Below, piece after piece: positions 3,016 through 63,526 of a stretch of DNA of 64,000 nt. The notes beneath the pieces were generated by a model that made no database searches, had not been told where the DNA came from, and saw nothing but the letters and a program-made list of their open reading frames with translations. A program made the translations under genes and the position numbers. Positions within the stretch are counted from its first letter, which is position 1, and every line of letters starts with the position of its first letter. This stretch comes from Minisyncoccota bacterium (GTDB taxonomy: Bacteria; Patescibacteriota; Minisyncoccia; Phycocordibacterales; UBA9973), in assembly GCA_036405895.1 (NCBI GenBank), contig DASWWS010000001.1:71864-135863 (forward strand), written 5' to 3'.

Positions 3016-3537
3016 ATGAAAAACCGCGGATTCACTTTAATCGAACTCCTTGTCGTTATTGCAGTTATTGGCATTCTTGCATCAGTGGTGATGGCAAGTT
3101 TAAACAGTGCTCGAGTGAAAGCCCGAAACGCGCGAAGGACAAGCGATATAAAACAACTATCGAATGCATTTCATCTAGGGCTTGATGGAACCGGGTCACT
3201 TCCAAGCAGTAATGGCACGTGGGCATGCGTCAGTGCAACGTGTTATGACGGATGGAGCGTACAAGCCCCTGTTGCTGCAGTCGATACCTATCTCGCACCA
3301 TATCTTCCTACAAAGCCATCGGACCCAGTGGGAGGGTCCCGCGGATATGGCGGGTATTTATATCTTAGTGCTTGGGTAGGGAGCGTTCGCTATAACGGAC
3401 TCACCTATCCTGCAGGAGCATACCTTTATTGGAATGTTGAGATGCCTGCAACAGAAAGTTCATGCGCTCCAGGTGGAATTTTGAGCTTTGGCACAAGCGG
3501 AACCTATGCCTCTTGTATGCTCCAACTTAATACATAG
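3016..3537 (+). CDS. Type IV pilin-like protein (prepilin-type N-terminal cleavage/methylation domain), paralog 1
   Basis: MKNRGFTLIELLVVIAVIGILASVVMASLNSAR class III signal. Conserved Cys pair (WACVSATCY) and YLAPYLPxKPSDPVGGSRGYGGYLY block shared with the paralogs at 3793 and 11711. Confidence 0.8.
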   Translation: MKNRGFTLIELLVVIAVIGILASVVMASLNSARVKARNARRTSDIKQLSNAFHLGLDGTGSLPSSNGTWACVSATCYDGWSVQAPVAAVDTYLAPYLPTKPSDPVGGSRGYGGYLYLSAWVGSVRYNGLTYPAGAYLYWNVEMPATESSCAPGGILSFGTSGTYASCMLQLNT

Positions 3538-3574: not shown

Positions 3575-3661
3575 GGAGGATTCGCATAGCGGTCTAGTGC
3601 ACCATGTTGGAAACGTGGCAGGGTAGTAATGCCCTCGGGAGTTCGAATCTCCCATCCTCCG
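3575..3661 (+). tRNA. tRNA-Ser (anticodon GGA), type II with long variable arm
   Basis: Folded by hand. Acceptor GGAGGAT/ATCCTCC; D-stem GCAT/GTGC; anticodon stem CCATG/CGTGG with loop TTGGAAA (anticodon GGA); long variable arm CAGGGTAGTAATGCCCTCG; T-arm GGGAG-TTCGAAT-CTCCC; discriminator G. CCA is not encoded. Confidence 0.75.
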
Positions 3662-3792
3662 CAAAAATAGGAAGTCATCAAAGATGACGACCATATTTTT
3701 GCGCAGTGCATTATAAGGAGCCTTAACGACTATATAATGCCTCCGCAAAGCCTGAGCGATTCGAATCCCGTACCTTCTGTTATAATAAGGTA

Positions 3793-4314
3793 ATGAAAAA
3801 CCGCGGGTTTACCCTCATTGAACTTTTGGTAGTCATCGCGGTGATCGGCATTTTGGCAAGTGTTGTGATGGCAAGTTTAAACTCTGCGAGAGTGAAGGCC
3901 CGTAATGCTCGCCGAAGCAGCGACATCAAGCAGCTCTACAATGCCTTTCAGCTTGGTCTTGATACTACAGGAGCGCTTCCTAATAATGGAGCAGCATGGT
4001 CATGTGTGAGCGCAACGTGCTATGAAGGGTGGAGTGGTAACACAGCGCACGCAACAGTGGATGCATATCTTGCACCGTATCTTCCCAGCAAGCCGTCCGA
4101 CCCAGTTGGCGGAAGTCGGGGGCATGGAGGATATCTTTATAATGTTGCATGGCCCGGGAGTGTTGCATATGACGGCTACACATTTCCTGCAGGATCATAT
4201 ATCTACTGGCTCCCTGAAGCTCCGCTCGGGCCCAACTCATGCGCACCAGGGCGATTGTTGGCAGTTGCTTCGGGTGGTAACTACGCAGCATGCATGCTCC
4301 AGCTAGATCGCTAA
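3793..4314 (+). CDS. Type IV pilin-like protein, paralog 2 (tandem to 3016-3537)
   Basis: The first ~50 aa are near-identical to paralog 1. The C-terminal domain is divergent but keeps the same Cys positions. Confidence 0.8.
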   Translation: MKNRGFTLIELLVVIAVIGILASVVMASLNSARVKARNARRSSDIKQLYNAFQLGLDTTGALPNNGAAWSCVSATCYEGWSGNTAHATVDAYLAPYLPSKPSDPVGGSRGHGGYLYNVAWPGSVAYDGYTFPAGSYIYWLPEAPLGPNSCAPGRLLAVASGGNYAACMLQLDR

Positions 4315-4392
4315 TTATTTCTCCACAAAAAAACTAAAAAATCCTTTAGTAATATATGCAAATGTTGTAAAATAGAGCTATCTATTAGCTCG

Positions 4393-7305
4393 ATGCAATA
4401 CCACTTTTTTAAAAAACTTTTTTATGCACTGAGTATTCTCGCGATAGTATTTTCCGCAACTTCGCCTGTTGTTTTTGCGGCTCCGGGCGTACCAAACATT
4501 GTCAACTATCAAGGAAGGCTTACTGATAATGCAGGCAGACTTCTTGGTGGAAGCGGCACCAATTATTATTTTCGTTTTTCATTGTGGACTACTCCTACGG
4601 TAGGAGGCGGAAGCAAGCTGTGGCCTGCTGGCCAGCCGGGCACGGTAACTACAAACGTTGTCGATGGGGTGTTTAATGTAAACATTGGCGACACCGTAAA
4701 CGGCTATCCTGATGCGCTCGATTACAATTTCAACGATAGTGATGCGGTGTACCTACAAATCGAAGTATCAAGCAACGGATCTTCATTTGAAACACTTGGT
4801 CCTCGCCAGCGCATCGTTTCGAGTGGGTACGCGATTAATGCGCAGACGGTCGCTGGTCTTGCTCCCGGAACTAGTGCAAACAATATCCTCACGCTCGGCG
4901 CAGACGGAGAGATAGTGCTTTCAAGCACTGGCGTTTCAACGCTTGGGGATATTGCTGCGGGAGTCATTTCAGCCGGTACATGGAATGGGTCTGCTATTGA
5001 AGACACATATTTTGTGAAGACAGGAGATTGGACGGGGTTGTTTGACGGAAACGAGGGAAGCTATTATTTGGACGCAAACAATCTCACAAACTTTGATACA
5101 CGCATTGCAACCGCAGTCGCAAGCCTCACCACCGACGACATCGCAGAGGGCGACAACAATTTTTATTTCAGCAACACGCTTGCGCGCGGAGCGCTTTCGG
5201 CGGGGAGTGGTATAACGTATGACAACACGAGTGGCGTCATTTCAAACAGTGGAGCGCTTTCATTCAATACGCGAACAGGGGACATCACGCTTGTTTCCGG
5301 CGACGTGACGGACGCGCTCGGCTTTGCGCCAATGAACCCATCAGGAACGACGGCGCAGTATTTCCGGGGAAACGGCACGCTTGCAACATTTCCAACAACA
5401 GTGTCATCGTTTACTAACGATAGCGGGTTTATAACAGGCAACCAAACGATTACTCTTTCAGGAGATATTTCAGGGTCGGGCACCACCGCAATCACTACTG
5501 CCATAGGTGCAGGGAAGGTGACCAATACCATGCTGGCAGGCTCTATTGCAGCATCAAAACTTGTTGGTACTGATATTGTCACTGTTGGGACAATCGGGGC
5601 GGGTACATGGAATGGCACAGTAATTACTCCTGCATATGGTGGAACAGGAGTGAGCACTATTACGGGAATCGTAAAAGGAAACGGTACCTCGGCATTTACG
5701 GCTGCAGTTGCCGGTACAGACTATGAAGTCCCTTTGACATTTTCGACCGGGCTCACGCGCTCTACAAATACAATAACAATTGATAACACTGTGGTGACCC
5801 TGACAGGGAGCCAGGCACTTTCGAATAAGACTGGGAATATTTCACAGTGGACCAACGATGTCGGATATGCGACAGGGGGCGGAACTGCTTCTGGAACAAA
5901 TACCGGAGACATTACGCTTGGAACAATTGGTTCATCTCCTAACACAAGCGGCGCAAGCCTGGTAGGGCAAGTACTGACCTTGCAGCCCGCAGATGCAACG
6001 CGCGGAGGAGTGTTGACGGCAACGGCACAGGAGATTTTAGGAGAAAAAAAATTCCTCAATCGAATCGTCATTGAAAAGTCAGTCGACTCGTCTTTTATTG
6101 CAAACTCTACAACCGGGCGCTCGGTGGCAGTGGTGTCTGGCGCATTGAAGTCATCGTTTCTTTTTGATAACGGCGGGCCTTTCTCAATTCAAACCAATAC
6201 AAAAGCAAATGTTAACAACGGAACGCCGAGCGGTGTTTCACTTCTTGAGCTCAGTGCCACAGGGGATATGTCAATCGGTACGACTACTGCAGCTGACCAG
6301 CCGCGCCTCGATGTTCTTGTAGCAACTGCAAGTATTACCACTGCAAGCCGTACTGTTATACGCGGACGCAACGCTGGCTCGTCATTTGTCACTTCAGGAC
6401 AAGCAAAGACAAACTATATCGCCGAGTTTATCAATACTGCCACTCGAAGTACCGGTGCAAACAATCTTACCAATGTGGCGCTCTATGCTTCTGCAAGCGG
6501 GGCACAGGTAAACTACGCGGGTATTTTTGCGGCAGGGAATGTGGGTATTGGGGATGTGACCCCGGACTACACGCTCGACGTGAAGGGGACAATTTGTCAG
6601 GACACTGATTCAGACGAAACCTGTGACGGGTCGGTTACTTCTGATGCGCGATTAAAAACAAATATCGAAACTATTCCTTCGGCCCTTGAAAAAATCAGAC
6701 AGCTTCGAGGGGTGTACTTTGATTGGGACGAAACGAACAGCCATACGGCATTTCTTGGACGCGGGACTCGGCAGGTAGGAGTAATCGCGCAGGAAATCGA
6801 AGCGGTATTTCCTTCGCTTATTTATCGAGACAGCAGCGGGTATCGAATGGTCGACTATCAAAAACTCACCGGGCCGTTGATTGAGGCGGTAAAAGAGCTT
6901 GATATACAGGTCCAAGCAATTCCTGTATATGAAGACGAAACATTCACAGAAAAAATTGCTGACTTTTTGCGAGGTATTGCCGAGCGCGGAGAAGCGATTA
7001 TCGATACGGTCCGCGCAAAGAAATTGTGCGCAGAAGACGTGTGCATCAACCGCGACCAGCTCCAAGAGATGATTGAGTACATCAACAACCAACAAGAACA
7101 GTCTTCCGGAGGATCTTCATCGAATCCTCCAGTAGATGAAGAAATTCCGCCAGGCGATGCAGAGCCTGAAGGAGATACTGTGCCGGAAGGGGGAGAAGAT
7201 ACTCCGCCTGCTGAAGAAGAGCTGGTACTGGAAGAAACACCCGAACCCGAACCTGTTCCCGAAGAAAGTCCTGAACCAGAACCTGAATCACCTCCAGTCG
7301 AATAA
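4393..7305 (+). CDS. Secreted tail-fibre-like surface protein with a C-terminal intramolecular chaperone auto-processing domain (peptidase S74-like) and an acidic Pro/Glu-rich tail
   Basis: Signal peptide. N-terminal IVNYQGRLTD...LW...GVFNVNIG motif. Long Gly/Thr/Ser-rich beta-type repeats. TSDARLKTNIETIPSALEKIRQLRGVYFDWDE...VGVIAQEIEAVFPSLI...GYRMVDYQKLTGPLIEAVKEL matches the S74 chaperone-of-endosialidase signature. The last ~70 aa are PE-rich. Confidence 0.75.
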   Translation: MQYHFFKKLFYALSILAIVFSATSPVVFAAPGVPNIVNYQGRLTDNAGRLLGGSGTNYYFRFSLWTTPTVGGGSKLWPAGQPGTVTTNVVDGVFNVNIGDTVNGYPDALDYNFNDSDAVYLQIEVSSNGSSFETLGPRQRIVSSGYAINAQTVAGLAPGTSANNILTLGADGEIVLSSTGVSTLGDIAAGVISAGTWNGSAIEDTYFVKTGDWTGLFDGNEGSYYLDANNLTNFDTRIATAVASLTTDDIAEGDNNFYFSNTLARGALSAGSGITYDNTSGVISNSGALSFNTRTGDITLVSGDVTDALGFAPMNPSGTTAQYFRGNGTLATFPTTVSSFTNDSGFITGNQTITLSGDISGSGTTAITTAIGAGKVTNTMLAGSIAASKLVGTDIVTVGTIGAGTWNGTVITPAYGGTGVSTITGIVKGNGTSAFTAAVAGTDYEVPLTFSTGLTRSTNTITIDNTVVTLTGSQALSNKTGNISQWTNDVGYATGGGTASGTNTGDITLGTIGSSPNTSGASLVGQVLTLQPADATRGGVLTATAQEILGEKKFLNRIVIEKSVDSSFIANSTTGRSVAVVSGALKSSFLFDNGGPFSIQTNTKANVNNGTPSGVSLLELSATGDMSIGTTTAADQPRLDVLVATASITTASRTVIRGRNAGSSFVTSGQAKTNYIAEFINTATRSTGANNLTNVALYASASGAQVNYAGIFAAGNVGIGDVTPDYTLDVKGTICQDTDSDETCDGSVTSDARLKTNIETIPSALEKIRQLRGVYFDWDETNSHTAFLGRGTRQVGVIAQEIEAVFPSLIYRDSSGYRMVDYQKLTGPLIEAVKELDIQVQAIPVYEDETFTEKIADFLRGIAERGEAIIDTVRAKKLCAEDVCINRDQLQEMIEYINNQQEQSSGGSSSNPPVDEEIPPGDAEPEGDTVPEGGEDTPPAEEELVLEETPEPEPVPEESPEPEPESPPVE

Positions 7306-8612
7306 TGACTTCCTTTCCGTATAAAAAAAGTATCATAGCGTTTGCCTTAAGCATATCTCTTGGAGTACTGATGCATCCCGAGAATGGCTTTGGTATTACG
7401 CCAACCTCTTCAAGTTACACTGTACATAACCCGGTCATTACCAGTGGCTTTGCCTCAATGGCATCCGGAAATTTTGGATTAGGCCAGTCATTTGGTCAAT
7501 CGGTTATCGGCAAGTCGCTTTCATCATCATTTGCAGTGTGGAGCGGATTTCAATATTTTGCCAGTGCGGGAACATTCACCCTTTCCGGGGTGGGGGGATC
7601 AAGTCAGGCGCAACTTTCTTGGACAATACCCGAGGTATTTAACGGAGCAGTTATTTCCGGGTATGAAGTGGGAATCGGGACAACATCGGGCTCGTATACG
7701 TTTCAGGATGTTGGGAATGTCACTTCGTTTACAAAAACAGGGCTCAATAACAATACGCCGTACTATTTTTTAGTGAAAGCGCACACTGCTTCAGGTGCAC
7801 CATTGTCGTTTTCCAATGAAGTGAGTATTACTCCAACAGGAACTATTACCCCGCCAGGCGGCGGTGGTGGTGGAGGGGGAGGAGGCAGTTCAACGGGGAC
7901 GGGGAGCGTTATTGTTTCAGGAATCGCATATCCGGGAGCGACAGTCGTTATTCTTAAAGACGGCAAGATTGAAACACAAACCACTGCCGACCCCGGAGGC
8001 GCATTTAACGTGCTTCTCTCAAGCCTTCGCGCAACCCACTATGCAATCGGCGTGTATGCCGAGGATACTGCAGGAAGAAAATCTCCTCCATACAGTTTTC
8101 CGGTCACGCTTGCAGACCAAGTCACAATTACTATTGCCAACGTATTTCTTGCGCCAACTATCGGCGTTGATAAGTCGGTCGTTGCGCAAGGAGAGCCGAT
8201 TGGAATTTTCGGTTCTTCCGCACCTAATACGCAGGTGAATATTTATGTGCACTCCGCGCAAGAGTTTGTGGAGAAGGTGACTTCAACTACCACCGGTGCG
8301 TGGTTTAAGCAGTTCGACACCACCTTTCTTGAAATAGGAGACCATAGTACATTTTCTCGCGCTGTGCTTTCTGACCAAGTAACGAATACCAGTGTGACAG
8401 TACCGTTCGTTGTGGGTACAACATCAGTTCCGATAGAGACGCTCGGTCGGAGCGACTTGAACAACGACGGGCGCGTGAACATTACCGACTTTTCCATGCT
8501 CTTGTACTATTGGCAAGGAACCCCGCCGCCCGGTTCAAAGGTGGATATTATAAAAGACGGCATTGTTAACAGTACAGACCTCTCAATCATGCTCTATGAT
8601 TGGACTGGATAA
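7305..8612 (+). CDS. Secreted FN3-domain protein with a poly-Gly linker and a C-terminal dockerin (two Ca-binding repeats)
   Basis: The start overlaps the previous stop (TAATG). FN3-like block (GYEVGIGTTSGSYTFQDVGNVTSFTKTGLNNNTPYYFLVKAHT). G10 linker. C-terminal DLNNDGRVNITDFSMLLYYW ... DIIKDGIVNSTDLSIMLYDW matches DxNxDGxVNxxD twice. Confidence 0.7.
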   Translation: MTSFPYKKSIIAFALSISLGVLMHPENGFGITPTSSSYTVHNPVITSGFASMASGNFGLGQSFGQSVIGKSLSSSFAVWSGFQYFASAGTFTLSGVGGSSQAQLSWTIPEVFNGAVISGYEVGIGTTSGSYTFQDVGNVTSFTKTGLNNNTPYYFLVKAHTASGAPLSFSNEVSITPTGTITPPGGGGGGGGGGSSTGTGSVIVSGIAYPGATVVILKDGKIETQTTADPGGAFNVLLSSLRATHYAIGVYAEDTAGRKSPPYSFPVTLADQVTITIANVFLAPTIGVDKSVVAQGEPIGIFGSSAPNTQVNIYVHSAQEFVEKVTSTTTGAWFKQFDTTFLEIGDHSTFSRAVLSDQVTNTSVTVPFVVGTTSVPIETLGRSDLNNDGRVNITDFSMLLYYWQGTPPPGSKVDIIKDGIVNSTDLSIMLYDWTG

Positions 8613-11023: not shown

Positions 11024-11704
11024 ATGAAAAAAACAATCACTTGGATTATTGTACTTTTGGCTATTGGGGCGGGAGCATTTTTGTACTTGACTCGACCGGT
11101 AAAGGTAGAGGATAGCAGCACTACAGCGGGAGTTGAATCCGAGCTTTCTGCGGACAATAAAAAGGGAGAAACACTCTATCGAATCAACAAAGAGCAGTCG
11201 ACCGCAAAGTTCACGATTAAAGAAGATCTTCGCGGTGAGCCATTTACTGTTGTAGGAACAACCAATGATATAAGCGGGGATGTTGTTCTTAAGACGGAAG
11301 GAAAGGCAGAGCTTACGATTGGAACAATTCTTATCGACGTTCGCACCTTCAAAACTGACAATGCAAATCGGGACGGCGCAATCAATCGCCTCATTGTGCA
11401 GACCGGTACAGAGGGTCATGAATATGCAGTACTTACGAACACTTCTGTTTCCGGTCTTCCTGAAACGATTACTGTAGGCACCCCATTTACGTTTGAGGTA
11501 ACAGGAGACCTAATGCTTGCAGGAATAAAGAAACCGGCAACCTTTGCAGTAACTGCAACACAGAACGAGGGTTCATTGTCGGGAACATTGAGCTCAACCT
11601 TGAAGCGCTCTGACTACAAACTCGTTATTCCGAACATTCCGTTTGTTGCAAATGTGTCTGACGACTTTGTTGTCAGCGCGGACTTTGTTGCAGTAGCGCA
11701 ATAA
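11024..11704 (+). CDS. Secreted YceI-like domain protein
   Basis: Signal/TM. The core ...KFTIKEDLRGEPFTVVGTTNDISGDVVL...IDVRTFKTDNANRDGAINRLIV... resembles the YceI family. Confidence 0.55.
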   Translation: MKKTITWIIVLLAIGAGAFLYLTRPVKVEDSSTTAGVESELSADNKKGETLYRINKEQSTAKFTIKEDLRGEPFTVVGTTNDISGDVVLKTEGKAELTIGTILIDVRTFKTDNANRDGAINRLIVQTGTEGHEYAVLTNTSVSGLPETITVGTPFTFEVTGDLMLAGIKKPATFAVTATQNEGSLSGTLSSTLKRSDYKLVIPNIPFVANVSDDFVVSADFVAVAQ

Positions 11705-11710
11705 TACATA

Positions 11711-12232
11711 ATGAAAAACCGAGGCTTCACCTTAATAGAGCTCCTTGTTGTTATTGCAGTGATTGGCATTTTAGCATCTGTTGTTTTAGCGAGCTTGAAT
11801 AGTGCTCGCGTTAAGGCTCGTAATGTTCGTCGCAATGCGGACATCCGGGAATTGCAAAGTGCCTTTGCTTTGGCAGCAAGCGATACAGGATCGATGCCGA
11901 GCTCTGCCGGAAACTTTGAGGGGTGGGCATGCGTCAGTGCTACATGCTATCAAGGATGGAGTATATATAGTGCCAACAGCACAGTGGATACCTTTATCGC
12001 AACAACGATGCCGTCAAAACCTATTGACCCTCCGGGCGGTCGCGGATACGGCGGATATTTGTACCATAGTTCATCATTGGGAGCCACTAACTATGATGGA
12101 AGTGTTACCACTGCAGGCCCCGTATTACACTGGCTGTTGGAGCCACCCTACAAAGTTGGGATGTGTGGTGCCGGAAATGCAAACGCTGTAAATTCAAACT
12201 ATGTCGCCTGTGTTATTTCGATAGGAAGATAA
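11711..12232 (+). CDS. Type IV pilin-like protein, paralog 4
   Basis: The same N-terminus plus the WACVSATCYQGWS and PPGGRGYGGYLY blocks shared with paralogs 1 and 2. Confidence 0.8.
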   Translation: MKNRGFTLIELLVVIAVIGILASVVLASLNSARVKARNVRRNADIRELQSAFALAASDTGSMPSSAGNFEGWACVSATCYQGWSIYSANSTVDTFIATTMPSKPIDPPGGRGYGGYLYHSSSLGATNYDGSVTTAGPVLHWLLEPPYKVGMCGAGNANAVNSNYVACVISIGR

Positions 12233-53857: not shown

Positions 53858-56800
53858 ATGTTATATAATAGAAAGATGATGAAGTACACCACACCACTGT
53901 TCTTGATAGCATTTTTATTTCTTATCAGTCCGTTTTCTGCGCATGCTGCATTTAGTGATACGCCTCAAGCTCGTTATGTAGGCACTACAGCGGGGTCATA
54001 TTATACGATGGCGCAAAATGCGGATACGATTTATGTCGGGGGCGAGTTTCCCGATATTGCTGTTACCAATAGCGTGCTCTCGCTCAATCTTGCAAATCAA
54101 ACAATAGCTGACAGAGAACTTCCGCTTGTCGTCGCAGCATCAGAAGGAATTATGGCAACTGCAGTTGATGCAGACGGCAATATATATCTTGCGGGGGACC
54201 CAATTGAAGTTGACGGAGTTGATAGAGGAAGGGTTGTTCGCATTCTTGCGAATGGAACGCTTGATGAGTCCTTTTCCATAGAAACAACCCAAGGAATTCG
54301 CGCACTGGCACTTTCAGGGGATACTCTGTATGCCGGAGGTGATGGGGAGCTGATTGCCATTGATTTGGACACCGCTGAGCAGGATGTTGTAGGAACGGAT
54401 ATGCTCGGAATCCTTTCTCTTGCAGTTTCAGGAAATATTCTGTATGTCGGAGGGCAGTTTTCCGATGCTGATGCTGACTCGGGGAATCCGGAAGTCTATA
54501 AATATCTCGCCGCATTTGATATGAGTGTTCCGGGCGGCGCACTGGTAACAGCTTTCAATCCTATTATTGACGGAGGAGCAGTGCGTGCTCTTGTTGTGTC
54601 TGGAGGCACGGTGTATGCAGGAGGATCGTTTACAGAAGTGGATGGCGACACTGCGCACAATGCAGTAGTTGCGCTGAGTACGACCGACGGAAGCATTGTT
54701 GAAAGTTTTGCCGCATCAGTGGATACAGGCGGGGTAGTGCTCGACCTCCTTCTTGAAGGCACAACACTCTATGTTGCAGGAAATTTCAACGGCATAAATA
54801 GCGAAGCTCGATTAGGTGTTGCAGCAGTGTCTACCATAGATGGCTCCGTTATTACTGCATTTGATGCAGATCTTACGGGGACTGCTCGCTCTGTAGTGTT
54901 GCATAACAGCACTCTTTACATGGGGGGAGAATTTATGGCTCTCAACGGGGACATGAACCATAATTATTTTGGAGCATTTGATGCTGCAACAGGAGAAATG
55001 CAAGCACTGAAAGCTTCTGTAGGGGCAAATGTAAATTCACTTTTTCTTTTGGGAGAGAGGTTGTATATAGCGGGAGAGTTCACCTCTACATCATTTTTTA
55101 GAAATGGGATTGCTGCTTTTGAAAAAGAATCAGGAGCCTTGACCTTCTTTGACCCTGGAATTGAAACATCTGCACCTGTCTATGCATTAATGCTTGATGG
55201 CACCACGCTGTATGCGGGTGGAGGGTTTTCGGGTATGGGCCCGGACGCTGAGCACAACTTTCTTGCAGCATTCGACAGTACGACAGGTGCTCTGATAGAG
55301 AGCTTCAAGCCTATTATTGAAAATACTGTCTGGAGTATTGCACTCGACGGCACCACAATCTATGCCGGAGGAGAGTTTACTGCAGTAGGAGGCAATGCGG
55401 CACACAATCGTCTTGCGGCATTCAATACTGCAGATGGCAGCTTAGTGGGGACACTTGCTCCGGACTTGGATTTTGAGGTGTGGACACTGTTTGTTGATGG
55501 TCAAAATGACCGACTCTATGTTGGGGGTGTATTTACTGATGTCGACGGAGATCCAGATTTGGATTATCTGGTGGCGTTTGACACAGTTACGGGAGCCCTT
55601 ATTCCAAGCTTTAATCCGATTGTTAATGGTGACGTCTATTCATTTGCACTTGACGGCACTACGCTTTATGTAGGAGGAACCTTTACTGCGGTAGGAGGCA
55701 ATGCGGCACACAATCGTCTTGCGGCATTCAGCACTGCTGACGGATCAGTAATTGGGTCCTTTGTTCCTAATCTTGAAACAAGCAATCCAAACTCTCTCGT
55801 GCTCGACGGTGACACGCTCTATGCGGCAGGGTATTTTACAGCAGTCAATGGCGACAGCGACTACGCGTATCTTGCAGCGCTTGATACTACAGACGGCTCT
55901 CTTGTGTCTGGCTTCAATCCTGTAATGAATGCTGACGTGTTGGCAATCCAAAGTGATGACGATGCATTATATGCGGCCGGATCCTTTAGTTCTGTAGGAG
56001 GAGAGGATCATAGTCATATTGCAGCCTTTCCTTTCGCTGTTCTTACCCCAACCGTTACTACCCAAGCCGCTTCTTCTATCACCCAAACCACTGCGACTCT
56101 CAACGGCACAATCGCCGATACAGGAGGTGAGAATGCAACTGCTCGCGGATTCAATTACGGTCTTACAACAGGGTATGGATCTACAGCGTCTACGAGCGGT
56201 TCATACTCAGCCGGCGCCTATACTGCAAGTATTACAGGCCTTACCTGCGGCACCCTTTATAACTTCCGCGCATTTGCGACCAATTCTGAAGATACTGGCA
56301 CTGGAGCAAACCAAACATTCACCACAAGTGCCTGTGACGGAGGGTCGGATGCCCCCACTGTAACAACAGAGGACACTTCTTCTCTCAACAGAACCACTGC
56401 TACAGTAAACGGAACCATTACTGCAACAGGAGGAGAAACTGTGACTGCTCGCGGATTCAATTATGGAATTACGACAAGTTACGGCAGCACCGTTTCTGAA
56501 ACGGGTACGTACTCAACCGGCGCATTTTCAGCACAGATTGAGGGTCTTGAGTGTGAGACTGAGTATCACTATCGTGCATTTGCAACCAATACTGAGGGTA
56601 CCAGCTATGGATCCGATGAGGTATTCACGACTTCAGACTGTACACGAAGCGGAGGAGGATCATCCTCAAGCGGGCCGCGCAATGATGCGTCTGCTCCCGC
56701 TGAAACTCCCACCCCTTCAACCGACACAACAGCGTGCCGCCCTGGAGACAATTTTAGCGCCGCAACGGGAGCGAGATGTTCTGGAACGGCAACGCCACCA

Positions 56801-61343: not shown

Positions 61344-61793
61344 ATGGAAAAACTACACATGTCAGTCACAATAAACGCACCGCGCGAAAAAGTATGGGAT
61401 ACAATGCTCAGTGTCGATACTTATCCTCAGTGGACCACTGCATTTCACCCGGGGTCATACTATAAAGGTACTTTGGCGCAAGGAGAAAAATTTCTTTTCC
61501 TTGGTCCTGATGAAGAAGGAGGAGAAATGGGGATGGTAAGCCGGGTGGCAGAAATTCGCCCCCATGAGTTCATCTCATTTGAACATCTCGGCATTGTAAA
61601 AAACGGCGTTGAAGATACTGAGAGCGAAGAGGCAAAAAAGTGGGCGCCTGCATTTGAGAATTATACCTTTAATGAAGTAGAGGGTGGCACAGAGGTGGTC
61701 ATTGATCAGGATATAGAATCCGGCTACAAAGCGGAGTTTGAAAAAATGTGGCAAGAAGCGCTAGTGCTTTTGAAAGAGCTTGCGGAGAAATAG
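61344..61793 (+). CDS. SRPBCC (AHSA1/Bet v1-like) family protein
   Basis: MSVTINAPREKVWDTMLSVDTYPQWT... The fold pattern is typical of Activator-of-Hsp90-ATPase-like bacterial proteins. Confidence 0.6.
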   Translation: MEKLHMSVTINAPREKVWDTMLSVDTYPQWTTAFHPGSYYKGTLAQGEKFLFLGPDEEGGEMGMVSRVAEIRPHEFISFEHLGIVKNGVEDTESEEAKKWAPAFENYTFNEVEGGTEVVIDQDIESGYKAEFEKMWQEALVLLKELAEK

Positions 61794-61877
61794 TATTGGC
61801 CAGAATTCCTGGGAATATTGAAAAATAGCAGCTAAAATGCTATAGTTTTCCGGTCATTTGATAATAGAATAGTGTGT

Positions 61878-61949
61878 TCCCCTGTGGCGCAGCGGTAGCG
61901 CAGTTGCCTGTTAAGCAATTGGTCGTAGGTTCGAATCCTACCGGGGGAG
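61878..61949 (+). tRNA. tRNA-Asn (anticodon GTT)
   Basis: Acceptor TCCCCTG/CGGGGGA. D-stem GCGC/GCGC. Anticodon stem GTTGC/GCAAT with loop CTGTTAA. T-arm GTAGG-TTCGAAT-CCTAC. Discriminator G. Confidence 0.8.
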
Positions 61950-62092
61950 CACACTATTTTAGAAATGATAATAAGAAATCGCTGTAATGGCGGTTTTTTA
62001 TTTTGCCATAGGATTCGAACCGTGGTGCCTGTTTTTAAGGAGCAGTGCGACTATAAAAACAGCGCATTTCGACCGAAGGGAGAGGCGAAGAA

Positions 62093-62117
62093 TACCGGGG
62101 GAGCACACTATTTTAGA
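62093..62117 (+). repeat. 25-bp direct repeat of the tRNA-Asn 3' end and downstream sequence (the first copy is at 61939-61963). The two copies bracket a 129-bp mini-insert.
   Basis: TACCGGGGGAGCACACTATTTTAGA occurs twice. The insert contains a 9-bp inverted repeat CTGTTTTTA/TAAAAACAG and a tRNA T-arm-like fragment GGATTCGAACC. Confidence 0.7.
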
Positions 62118-62125
62118 TGATGGCT

Positions 62126-62157
62126 AAACAAAAACACCCGAAAGGGTGTTTTTGTTG
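62126..62157. terminator. Bidirectional intrinsic terminator
   Basis: aaacaaaaacacccgaaagggtgtttttgtt. Confidence 0.7.
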
Positions 62158-62158
62158 T

Positions 62159-62413
62159 TTAGCGTCTTAAAGCAAAATCGCCCTTTTGCACGCTTCGGCC
62201 GGTTGCAGGCGGAGTGTTCCAAAAATCAAAGCGAAACCATCCATATCCTTCAGGCGGGGTAGCGAGGAGCTCACGCGTGCCTGAAGGCGCGTATTCAAAC
62301 GCCCAGTGCCCATACGGTGCCGCTGTAGGTGCGAGCCACTCGCCACGCGCAATATGGGGCACTGCCACCCATACAAACAACACGAGGAATATAATTGCCA
62401 AAACCTTCTCCAT
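62159..62413 (-). CDS. Hypothetical small secreted or membrane protein (84 aa)
   Basis: N-terminal hydrophobic segment. ORF only. Confidence 0.4.
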   Translation of the reverse strand: MEKVLAIIFLVLFVWVAVPHIARGEWLAPTAAPYGHWAFEYAPSGTRELLATPPEGYGWFRFDFWNTPPATGRSVQKGDFALRR

Positions 62414-62461
62414 AAGGCTATACTACACTGCATTTTTTACAAATCAATCAATACACTCCAT

Positions 62462-63526
62462 ATGAACACACATCCCCGAAAAACAAAAATTGTCGCTACA
62501 ATCGGCCCTCGCTCTGAAAAACCTGAACGCTTTGCCGAGCTCCTTCATGCAGGTATCAATGTAGCCCGCACAAATATGAGCCATGACGACCAGGCTGTGC
62601 ACCAGGCCCGCATCGATACTATCCGTGAAGTTGCAGCTCAAGAAGGGAAGTCTATCGCCATCCTCCAAGACCTTTCAGGGCCAAAGATTCGCATCGGCGA
62701 CTTTGAAGACGGCTCTATCGAGCTTATCCCGGGGCACGAATTTATTCTCAGCGGTACAAAAGCAAGCGGGAATGCGTACAAAGTGTATTTCAACTATCCA
62801 AACATCGACAGCGACATCAAGCCGGGGCAGTTGCTCATGATTGACGACGGACGTCGAAAGCTTCGCGTAGACAAGGTAGAGAACGGAGATATCTACACCA
62901 CTATTTTGGTAGGAGGTGTTATTAAAAGCCGCCGAGGAGTAAATATTCCGAACGCCTTTCTTTCTATTTCTGCAATCACCGAAAAAGACAAGAGCGATCT
63001 TGAGTTTGGCATCAAGGCCGGAGTTGATTATGTCGCACTTTCATTTGTGCGCACTGCAAAAGACATTGAAGAATTGCGCGAACTAATCAAAAGCCACGGA
63101 GGCAACCAGATGATAATTGCAAAAATTGAAACACCGGAAGCGGTGGAAAAAATCGATGAGATTATTGAAGCGGTTGACGGCATTATGGTTGCCCGAGGCG
63201 ACCTTGCAATTGAAATCGGCCACGCAAAAGTGCCGGCAGTGCAGAAAATGCTCATTCGCAAGTGCAATGCGGCAGGCAAGCCTGTCATCGTTGCAACCCA
63301 AATGCTTGAAAGCATGATCAACGCTCCTGTACCTACCCGGGCTGAAGTATCCGATATCGCTCACTCTGTGTACGACGGAGCGGACGCAGTGATGCTCTCT
63401 GAAGAGAGCGCATTGGGGGAAAATGCACTTGAAGCGGTAACTATCATGGTGGAAACAATTGTTGAGACCGAGCGCGACATGGGTATTGACGCAAGCGCTC
63501 AAAAAGAGTGGAAAAGCCGGGCGTAA
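62462..63526 (+). CDS. pyk: Pyruvate kinase, short form (354 aa, no C-terminal regulatory domain)
   Basis: KIVATIGP...NVARTNMSHDD...LQDLSGPKIRIG...MVARGDLAIEI...VATQMLESM. Start trimmed to the ATG at 62462. Confidence 0.85.
   Translation: MNTHPRKTKIVATIGPRSEKPERFAELLHAGINVARTNMSHDDQAVHQARIDTIREVAAQEGKSIAILQDLSGPKIRIGDFEDGSIELIPGHEFILSGTKASGNAYKVYFNYPNIDSDIKPGQLLMIDDGRRKLRVDKVENGDIYTTILVGGVIKSRRGVNIPNAFLSISAITEKDKSDLEFGIKAGVDYVALSFVRTAKDIEELRELIKSHGGNQMIIAKIETPEAVEKIDEIIEAVDGIMVARGDLAIEIGHAKVPAVQKMLIRKCNAAGKPVIVATQMLESMINAPVPTRAEVSDIAHSVYDGADAVMLSEESALGENALEAVTIMVETIVETERDMGIDASAQKEWKSRA

Follow-up and report, generated by a model that had tools for sequence, protein, structure and literature searches.

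A short non-coding insert between repeats of a tRNA-Asn 3′ end in a Patescibacteria genome: a candidate integrative mini-cassette

In SCCmec and pseudo-SCC, serine-recombinase cassettes occupy the 3′ end of rlmH and form composite arrays bounded by repeats. The CIMEs of Streptococcus, which are non-autonomous integrative elements, are flanked by attachment (att) sites, lack a recombination module, and are kilobases long and gene-bearing. The att site of a large serine recombinase (LSR) spans roughly 40–50 bp, with imperfect dyad symmetry around a central crossover dinucleotide. Integrative elements (prophages and genomic islands) that target tRNA genes and leave tRNA 3′-end repeats as attL and attR are reportedly the subject of classic descriptions by Reiter et al. 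in 1989 and Williams in 2002. Here we describe a short non-coding insert between two copies of a tRNA-Asn 3′ end in a stretch of 64,000 nucleotides from a Minisyncoccota bacterium (Patescibacteria), the whole of which is referred to as the window. With moderate confidence, we read this insert as a fossil or non-autonomous, non-coding integrative mini-cassette lodged in an att site at the 3′ end of tRNA-Asn, the repeats being its attL- and attR-like borders.

The locus resembles tRNA-targeted islands in that direct repeats of a tRNA 3′ end flank the insert, an intact tRNA is kept, empty and occupied alleles exist, and units occur in tandem. A sequence-only reading of the stretch had seen in the repeats the attL/attR signature of a tRNA-targeting integrase; the signature is supported, but the enzymes at this site are LSRs and not the tyrosine integrases of classic islands, and the 129 bp in the window, unlike those islands, are gene-free, conserved, and furnished with an inverted copy of the T-arm. 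With SCCmec and pseudo-SCC the locus shares LSR-type enzymes, the regenerated 3′ end of a conserved gene, repeats of 13 to 25 bp between cassettes, and the recombinase-free state of some cassettes. It differs from SCCmec in having a tRNA gene as target, in non-coding cassettes that go down to 46–175 bp, and in that its mobilisation is putative. CIMEs, too, have attL-/attR-like repeats and no integrase inside, but the window insert is two orders of magnitude smaller and made of structured non-coding DNA.

The repeat, TACCGGGGGAGCACACTATTTTAGA, is present exactly twice on the plus strand (two matches vs. 0 expected by chance), with 129 bp between the copies; allowing up to three mismatches brought no further match in the window, and 100 dinucleotide-preserving shuffles likewise gave none. 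Since the tRNA ends at 61949, copy 1 consists of its final 11 nt and 14 nt of trailer, exactly as first described. When three mismatches are admitted, the repeat grows to 32 nt (61932–61963 vs. 62086–62117, 91% identity) and reaches the T-loop. Its 13-nt core, TACCGGGGGAGCA, occurs only these two times in the window and the 7.8 kb beyond it (Logan contig L001), searched on both strands with up to two mismatches. The tRNA has no intron, and its CCA is not encoded. The features of the locus are as follows.

61878–61949/50, plus strand: tRNA-Asn(GTT), called by ARAGORN and matched by Rfam RF00005 (70.3 bits, E = 3e-15)
61939–61963, plus strand: direct repeat copy 1 (attL-like), exact 25-mer, made of the last 11 nt of the tRNA (TACCGGGGGAG) and 14 nt of trailer
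61971–62001, plus strand: terminator-like hairpin with T-run inside the insert, from the minimum-free-energy fold of 61970–62117
62005–62092, plus strand: structured module "X2", with an outer stem (UUCG/CGAA), a long hairpin and a small 3′ hairpin, from homologs and RNAalifold
62009–62021, plus strand: inverted T-arm copy TAGGATTCGAACC, a 13-nt perfect reverse complement of the tRNA T-arm at 61928–61940
62022–62069, plus strand: conserved hairpin element, stem 62029–62037/62054–62062 (covariance model R1, 45 bits, E = 2e-7)
62093–62117, plus strand: direct repeat copy 2 (attR-like), with degenerate T-loop-region similarity back to 62086
62127–62156, plus strand: native terminator-like hairpin (AACAAAAACACCC/GGGTGTTTTTGTT), a 13-bp perfect inverted repeat downstream of and outside the inserted DNA

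The terminator-like hairpin at 61971–62001, which a consensus terminator scan did not call, may end the tRNA-Asn transcription unit within the insert; the same layout of tRNA, about 20 nt, hairpin and T-run is also seen at LSR-occupied and mini-insert loci. Two motifs remarked on in the sequence-only reading need reinterpretation. The "T-arm-like" GGATTCGAACC is T-arm sequence, contained in TAGGATTCGAACC, but in inverted orientation: it copies the T-arm of this tRNA in reverse complement and is not a sense T-arm; inverted tRNA-derived arms of equivalent kind occur in L138, L115, L252, and L343. The 9-bp inverted repeat, CTGTTTTTA/TAAAAACAG, exists at 62029–62037 and 62054–62062 around a 16-nt "loop," and is now understood as the stem of a widespread conserved hairpin element, whose invariant core reads TAAGGAGC-AGT-GCGACTATA in the window (62036–62055). 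Folding z-scores of the insert on the plus strand are −2.5 to −3.1, and its open reading frames (ORFs) are at most 51 aa, none of them supported. The search for further copies proposed at the outset gave no second copy of the full 129-bp insert within the window, but its hairpin module recurs there after a tRNA-Ser, as described below.

The tRNA-Asn 5′ leader (TAGAATAGTGTGT, 61865–61882) is complementary to the trailer (CACACTATTTTA) in both repeat copies (61944–61961 and 62098–62115), and their pairing would lengthen the acceptor stem by ~11 bp. A TAGAAT −10-like box is found in the leaders of both tRNA-Asn and tRNA-Ser, the latter lacking leader-trailer complementarity.

That the 154 bp are an insertion follows from comparison with relatives. 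GTDB representative genomes were scanned with the tRNA-Asn 3′ 29-mer, which returned 97 loci. The closest of these is L158, a Minisyncoccia metagenome-assembled genome (MAG) with ~83% nucleotide identity in the flanking genes. It has a single tRNA 3′ end, after which come the terminator, 84-aa ORF, and pyruvate kinase (PK) genes known from the window, and its pairwise alignment with the window has one clean 154-nt gap, corresponding to the 129 bp and one repeat copy; an empty site thus exists. The right flank of copy 2 runs into sequence homologous to that directly 3′ of the single copy in L158, and the hairpin at 62127–62156 is homologous to the one directly 3′ of tRNA-Asn there. A further relative, L367, was found through its PK protein (97% amino-acid and 84% nucleotide identity to the window); its insert is orthologous and has both repeat copies (22/23 identical), and the homolog of the native hairpin again lies 3′ of copy 2. 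The 154 bp are therefore a real insertion relative to a close relative, and presence/absence variation at the site is shown within a genus-level clade. The duplication is not of the ancient, fixed and invariant kind, the insert being present in the window and L367 and absent from L158.

Over 1.9 and 6.2 kb, respectively, nucleotide identity is 90.1 and 85.8% between L367 and L158, 84.2 and 83.6% between the window and L367, and 83.3 and 81.5% between the window and L158. On the resulting tree, (window,(L367,L158)), the pattern is most simply explained if the insert was gained once, long ago, and later disappeared from the lineage of L158, where it was probably lost precisely, between the repeats; the alternative is two independent gains at the same site.

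Other differences among these genomes concern the tRNA gene itself. Relative to the conserved 84-aa ORF and PK genes (window 61878–63526), tRNA-Asn points its 3′ end toward PK in the window, L158, and L367, and its 5′ end toward PK in L372/L373/L371, L085, L110, L083, L153, and L139; since most related genomes have the opposite orientation, the tRNA segment would have been inverted in the window's lineage, an event that might be connected with recombinase action at this site. The tRNA-Asn anticodon loop of many Patescibacteria holds a group I intron of 190–560 nt (Rfam RF00028, 52–115 bits), its carriers being L158 (557 nt), L095, L096, L117, L155, L083, L128, L145, and L252. Finally, the Logan contigs L001–L003, which come from different runs, are identical to the window, and have genes of a Patescibacteria-type set, all start exactly at window position 55701, which suggests an assembly break at about that point, e.g., a repeat or a population variant.

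Comparison of tRNA-Asn loci shows the same tRNA end to be the apparent integration site of LSR islands in related Patescibacteria. A minus-strand ORF lies directly after tRNA-Asn in L092, L095, L117, L155, and L157; it is 448 aa long in L092, running off the available sequence there, and 538–571 aa from the first Met in the other four, and its last codons (..LPR and stop) are the antisense of the tRNA 3′ end. The equivalent ORF of L096 is frame-shifted near the C-terminus. Pfam assigns Resolvase, Recombinase, and Zn_ribbon_recom domains to these ORFs, the make-up of an LSR. By profile search, at least 15 of the 97 loci have an LSR ORF that touches or runs into the 3′ end of tRNA-Asn, and the LSR-bearing loci come from four phyla (Patescibacteria, Bacteroidota, Planctomycetota, and one gammaproteobacterial MAG); the family comprises 1731 proteins at E ≤1e-30. 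In IMG/VR contigs, what typically comes next after related LSRs is a convergent tRNA gene of another specificity (Gln, Leu, Asp, Ala, or Pro), and the C-termini of these LSRs read through the antisense T-loop.

The occupied counterpart of the window site, with integrase and cargo as the sequence-only reading had envisaged, is found in the syntenic L372 and L373 (PK 78% identical), where an LSR and cargo adjoin tRNA-Asn beside an 84–86-aa ORF and the PK genes. The cargo comprises a reverse transcriptase, a tRNA-Arg, and small ORFs in L372, and an SNF2/PLD helicase, an MmeI-like restriction-modification enzyme, and an HTH_17 protein in L373. The L372 island is ~9.3 kb long; one copy of TACCGGGGGAGCA borders it at the tRNA and another at the far end, where two attR-like units stand in tandem. 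The tRNA and the distal copy become identical from TACC onward, at the very same base, in the window, L367, L372, L139, L153, and L150. The short insert directly after the tRNA-Asn of L139 is nearly the same as the L372 far-end unit, which consists of terminator, GCGAACCCCGGAAAGCTCTGCT, and core; by this similarity, short inserts and full islands are parts of one system, and older inserts would have been pushed outward by newer integrations at the same tRNA. The arrangement TGCGAACCCCGG-N10-13-CCGGGGGAGCA was read by eye in L139, L153, and L372, whereas the left arm of the attR-like site in the window is shorter than in these three, being reduced to GGCGAA-GAA before TACC.

Taken together, the repeat appears to behave as an attachment-site core. 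In the proposed mechanism, an LSR-type recombinase, acting in trans or formerly in cis from a gene since deleted, would have joined an element-borne TACCGGGGGAGCA(...) to the tRNA, the putative attP being reconstructed as GCGAACCCCGG...TACCGGGGGAGCA.... On one side, the tRNA would have stayed intact and received its terminator from the element; on the other would lie the native 3′ end, displaced, and the native flank. What remains would be two att-proximal arms and a structured module of ~85 nt. Because no recombinase gene was found in the window or the 7.8 kb beyond and the attR-like left arm is short, the insert is probably immobile now.

Several observations weigh against an integrative origin. 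No LSR gene was detected in the 64-kb window or the 7.8 kb beyond (L001) by tblastn and hmmsearch, with tyrosine integrases not searched systematically. The LSR islands of L363 and L364 have no repeat of at least 12 nt between the tRNA end and 6.5–10 kb beside the LSR gene, and L373 has no second core copy within about 9.7 kb. An identity of 25 bp is long for a serine-recombinase site. Integration alone does not explain the inverted T-arm copy and the hairpin module. Moreover, the hairpin module is in no LSR element examined, so that its link to these elements is by position only, and an LSR is encoded at just 2 of 120 hairpin-bearing metagenome loci among the matches listed.

A separate feature of L364 is a pseudo-tRNA, a degenerate second copy of the tRNA-Asn 5′ end and leader (CGCGGAATAATAT..., 11660–11800), which lies upstream of the LSR-associated tRNA-Asn, on the side opposite to the island.

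The window insert has counterparts elsewhere. A copy of the last 11 nt of the tRNA lies within 400 nt downstream of 6 of 108 tRNAs (97 loci and the window) and upstream of none, and all six are tRNA-Asn of Patescibacteria; degenerate short-insert cases are found besides in L115, L128, and L139. Some inserts form arrays. L252 has two units after tRNA-Asn, the latter of the window's type, with a second core behind the first unit and a third core behind the other. L145, with three copies, combines a unit of 174 bp with a cassette of 3 kb, both of which terminate in the same ~150-nt element and core.

In L145, a GC-rich structured element of ~170 nt that ends in the tRNA-Asn 3′ end occurs twice (4213–4386 and 7190–7365), flanking three ORFs without a Pfam match; a gene for an IS200-like Y1 transposase follows directly (7550–7963). 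A "GGGGTCGGGAG...GTAGGAAG" module related to this element recurs in L138, L128 (twice), and L252, and had no Rfam match in L138 and L128, the two that were scanned.

The sequence-only reading had proposed a decayed island or a miniature element. A cargo-free mini-insert it is, but it is old and conserved, and neither a fresh event nor free-decaying debris. Between the window and L367, identity is 84% in the left part of the insert, 87% in the structured module, and 96% in repeat copy 2, vs. 64% at PK third codon positions and 67% in the native terminator just outside. On these comparisons, the insert is apparently old, since lineages that differ by ~16% in nucleotide sequence have it in common, and it is clearly more conserved than the neutral proxy, as random debris would not be expected to be. 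Full-length homologs of the module (62005–62092) follow tRNA-Asn in L367 and L252 and tRNA-Tyr in L343, and in L252 and L343 the outer arms match the local tRNA. RNAalifold, run on the four module sequences, finds 26 pairs, 6 of them with compensatory changes. The hairpin core is degraded in L367 (20 bits vs. 45 in the window with R1), and constraint in the clade may therefore be on the structure or the terminator and not on the core. Probably the insert now serves the host, if only by giving the tRNA its first terminator, or else its hairpin module is the reason for its retention.

The hairpin belongs to a family of its own. A metagenome scan with the pattern TAAGGAGC-N4-5-CGACTATA-WWWW, which leaves the left stem arm unconstrained, returned at least 120 loci; figures on hairpin copies in this paragraph hold among the matches listed. 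Most come from a few sample series, among them contigs labelled "Hain," which we take, with their kindred series, to be groundwater metagenomes. Nearly all copies have a flanking stem of 7–13 bp and variable sequence. Over at least 116 distinct copies, seven stem pairs covary around an invariant 20-nt core; one such pair is UA in 56 copies, AU in 54, and otherwise in 6. In the 116 distinct copies, 78.7% of cells are paired, vs. 62% in shuffles and 39–47% with slid partners, and the covariation score was reached by 0 of 500 shuffles. According to the predicted fold, the core can pair with itself through two G.A pairs and a C-G-closed triloop, which in the alignment, read by eye, is mostly GNA or ANA, GAA being commonest. 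The hairpin lies within 400 nt downstream of a same-strand tRNA in 15 of 124 copies (~2 expected by our own estimate) and within 10 nt in 10 of 124 (~0.05 expected by the same estimate). Where it directly abuts a tRNA (L243, L261, L283, L321, and L349), the stem is built from the tRNA 3′ strand and its complement, and L258 has one extra tandem unit relative to L281.

Outside the metagenomes, model R1 found no hairpin near tRNA-Asn at E ≤1 in the 97 representative genomes; a variant in L102, AAGGGGCTATCGACTAT at +72, was seen by regular-expression search only. Rfam 15 matched only the tRNA model in 61700–62500, other models remaining at E ≥0.2, far below gathering scores, and it had no match to the hairpin in 17 metagenome loci or to the inserts of L138, L128, L145, L126, and L115. 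In the window, R1 has two matches, both tRNA-linked (45 and 37 bits), and the shared "loop" motif AGGAGC-N-CGACTA has two matches where 0.03 are expected. The second site is as follows.

3575–3662, plus strand: tRNA-Ser(GGA), the only other tRNA in the window, called by ARAGORN
3700–3749, plus strand: second hairpin copy, core 3714–3734 (R1, 37.2 bits, E = 1e-5)

Directly after this hairpin, CCTCCGCAAA (3740–3749) is an exact 10-mer repeat of the tRNA-Ser 3′ end (3656–3665), and the unit (3575–3800) runs in the order terminator-like hairpin, conserved hairpin, 3′-end repeat, and a fragment, TTCGAATCCCGTACCTTCTG. Tandem hairpin units, each ending in a tRNA 3′ end, follow tRNA-Ser in L247 (8400–8900) and L349 (minus strand, 130–480); those of L247, after tRNA-Ser(GGA), are homologous to the window's, and there are metagenome contigs with 3–4 tandem units. 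Tentatively, and with considerable doubt, the hairpin may be a new structured element of Patescibacteria (core TAAGGAGC-NNN-GCGACTATA) that forms foldback mini-cassettes with tRNA-derived arms, arrayed behind tRNAs, and thus a new mobile or functional system instead of an island leftover. It might take part in recombination in single-stranded, folded form, in the way of integron attC sites, or be set free as an RNA processed like a tRNA.

The TTCGAATCCCGTACCTTCTG fragment after the tRNA-Ser unit resembles the 3′ end of another tRNA. Paralogous genes for 173-aa type IV pilin-like proteins (N-terminus MKNRGFTLIELLVVIAVIGILA) flank this locus at 3016–3537 and 3793–4314; either a tandem duplication enclosed the tRNA, or the tRNA and unit were inserted between the copies. 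A hairpin subfamily with CATGGNTGATTT... (L246, L263, L287, L290, and L307) stands at a fixed ~9 nt from the start codon of an opposite-strand gene and is then joined by a second hairpin beginning ACCC[CAT]G. From first codons translated by eye, several of these genes look like highly expressed ones: L31-like MQKDIHPKY, L11-like MAKKITKKIKLQ, and SSB-like MYLNKIILIGN.

As extragenic, multi-copy, sometimes tandem hairpins, imperfect and with bulges, the copies resemble REP, BIME, and REPIN sequences as well as integron attC sites. Unlike in REP, it is the apex (the 20-nt core) that is invariant and the stem that varies, the opposite arrangement. Recognition of a folded strand is conceivable as in attC, but there is no integron integrase and there are no cassette ORFs, and the core bears no resemblance to R/L boxes (no box search was made). 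REP/REPIN elements with RAYT were rejected on the same relation of stem and apex, and phmmer with an IS200-like TnpA matched L145 only.

The main rival to the mini-cassette reading builds on this family. In it, a self-propagating hairpin of REPIN or MITE type would settle beside tRNA ends, and template switching during replication would produce the direct, inverted, and direct copies without a site-specific recombinase. Template switching would explain what integration does not, i.e., the inverted T-arm copy and the hairpin module; the units are indeed laid out as an inverted tRNA 3′ segment, a module, and a direct tRNA 3′ segment, the abutting hairpins borrow their stems from the tRNA, and the at least 120 copies with invariant core and covarying stems, the extra tandem unit of L258, and the scarcity of LSRs at hairpin loci (2 of 120) all fit. 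On the other hand, the 25-nt repeat of the window lies outside the hairpin stem, duplication of the tRNA end also occurs at mini-inserts without the hairpin (L139, L153, L150, L126, L138, and L145), and the same repeat with the same edge bounds the LSR island of L372. Nor is any Y1/RAYT-type transposase associated except for the one IS200-like gene in L145. On this evidence, we consider the self-propagating hairpin unlikely as the source of the window insert.

Distinctly unlikely, in our judgement, is the insert being a functional non-coding RNA co-transcribed with tRNA-Asn, whose second 3′ end would serve for release by processing enzymes, so that the repeat would be mimicry and not a footprint. 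Conservation well above the neutral proxy, compensatory changes in helices, and the plus-strand folding z-scores fit an RNA unit; each unit closes with a tRNA 3′ end and trailer, and the hairpin is on the tRNA-sense strand in 15 of 15 tRNA-downstream cases among the matches listed. On the other side, a terminator-like hairpin and T-run lie between the tRNA and the module, and the insert is dispensed with in the sister lineage L158, its hairpin core degraded in L367. An RNA unit also leaves unexplained the identical core around the 9.3-kb LSR island. It is very improbable that slippage or unequal crossing-over produced an ordinary local duplication here, or that the repeat is a meaningless product of chance: tandem duplication of units does occur in arrays (L258 vs. 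L281), but no 25-mer repeat is expected by chance, the 129 bp between the copies do not duplicate upstream sequence, and the same architecture is found at tRNA-Asn in several lineages with unrelated inserts.

Further candidates were tried and set aside. For a hidden tRNA or tmRNA in the insert, ARAGORN called nothing at normal thresholds, and the T- and D-arm analogues do not pair as in a tRNA; relaxed settings (-ps80 -i) gave a weak minus-strand "tRNA-Stop with 17-nt intron" and no tmRNA. For a group I intron remnant, local alignment scores (window insert vs. the L158 intron, L145 insert vs. its own) equalled shuffled means. For a relic of a frameshifted LSR C-terminus in the left part of the insert, tblastn gave nothing significant, the layout providing a weak hint of similarity in its terminator and GGTTCGAA-like motif ~60 nt after the tRNA. 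A phage attP with the hairpin was sought by a core scan of IMG/VR, which gave 62 matches, none beside a called tRNA and almost all stemless, as is consistent with chance. As for the hairpin acting as a transcription terminator, its 3′ flank is T-rich in about half of the copies among the matches listed and A-rich in the rest. TIGR arrays, which stand beside a Tas gene, repeat in tandem a unit that has two variable spacers and box C/D-like motifs around them (PMC12045711); the hairpin units have a fixed 20-nt core and no spacer pairs, and most copies among the matches listed are solitary.

We therefore return to the mini-cassette as the favoured account of the tRNA-Asn insert. The footprint itself is of a known kind, an att-type trace at a tRNA gene. 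In the literature searched, there was no paper with a 13-nt sub-string of the commonest core variant in such a context, and none on tRNA-linked hairpin repeats in the Candidate Phyla Radiation; the use of tRNA ends by LSRs on such a scale, the arrays of sub-200-bp cassettes, and the hairpin family appear to be undescribed there. Together, the data point to a clade of LSRs that integrates at tRNA 3′ ends, those of tRNA-Asn especially, across Patescibacteria and other phyla. Serine recombinases specific for tRNA genes and having short cores could interest tool builders. The same tRNA sites seem to gather arrays of very small non-coding cassettes, which are kept in streamlined genomes, and if the hairpin were functional or mobile, it would give fresh access to the gene flow or RNA biology of an uncultured phylum.

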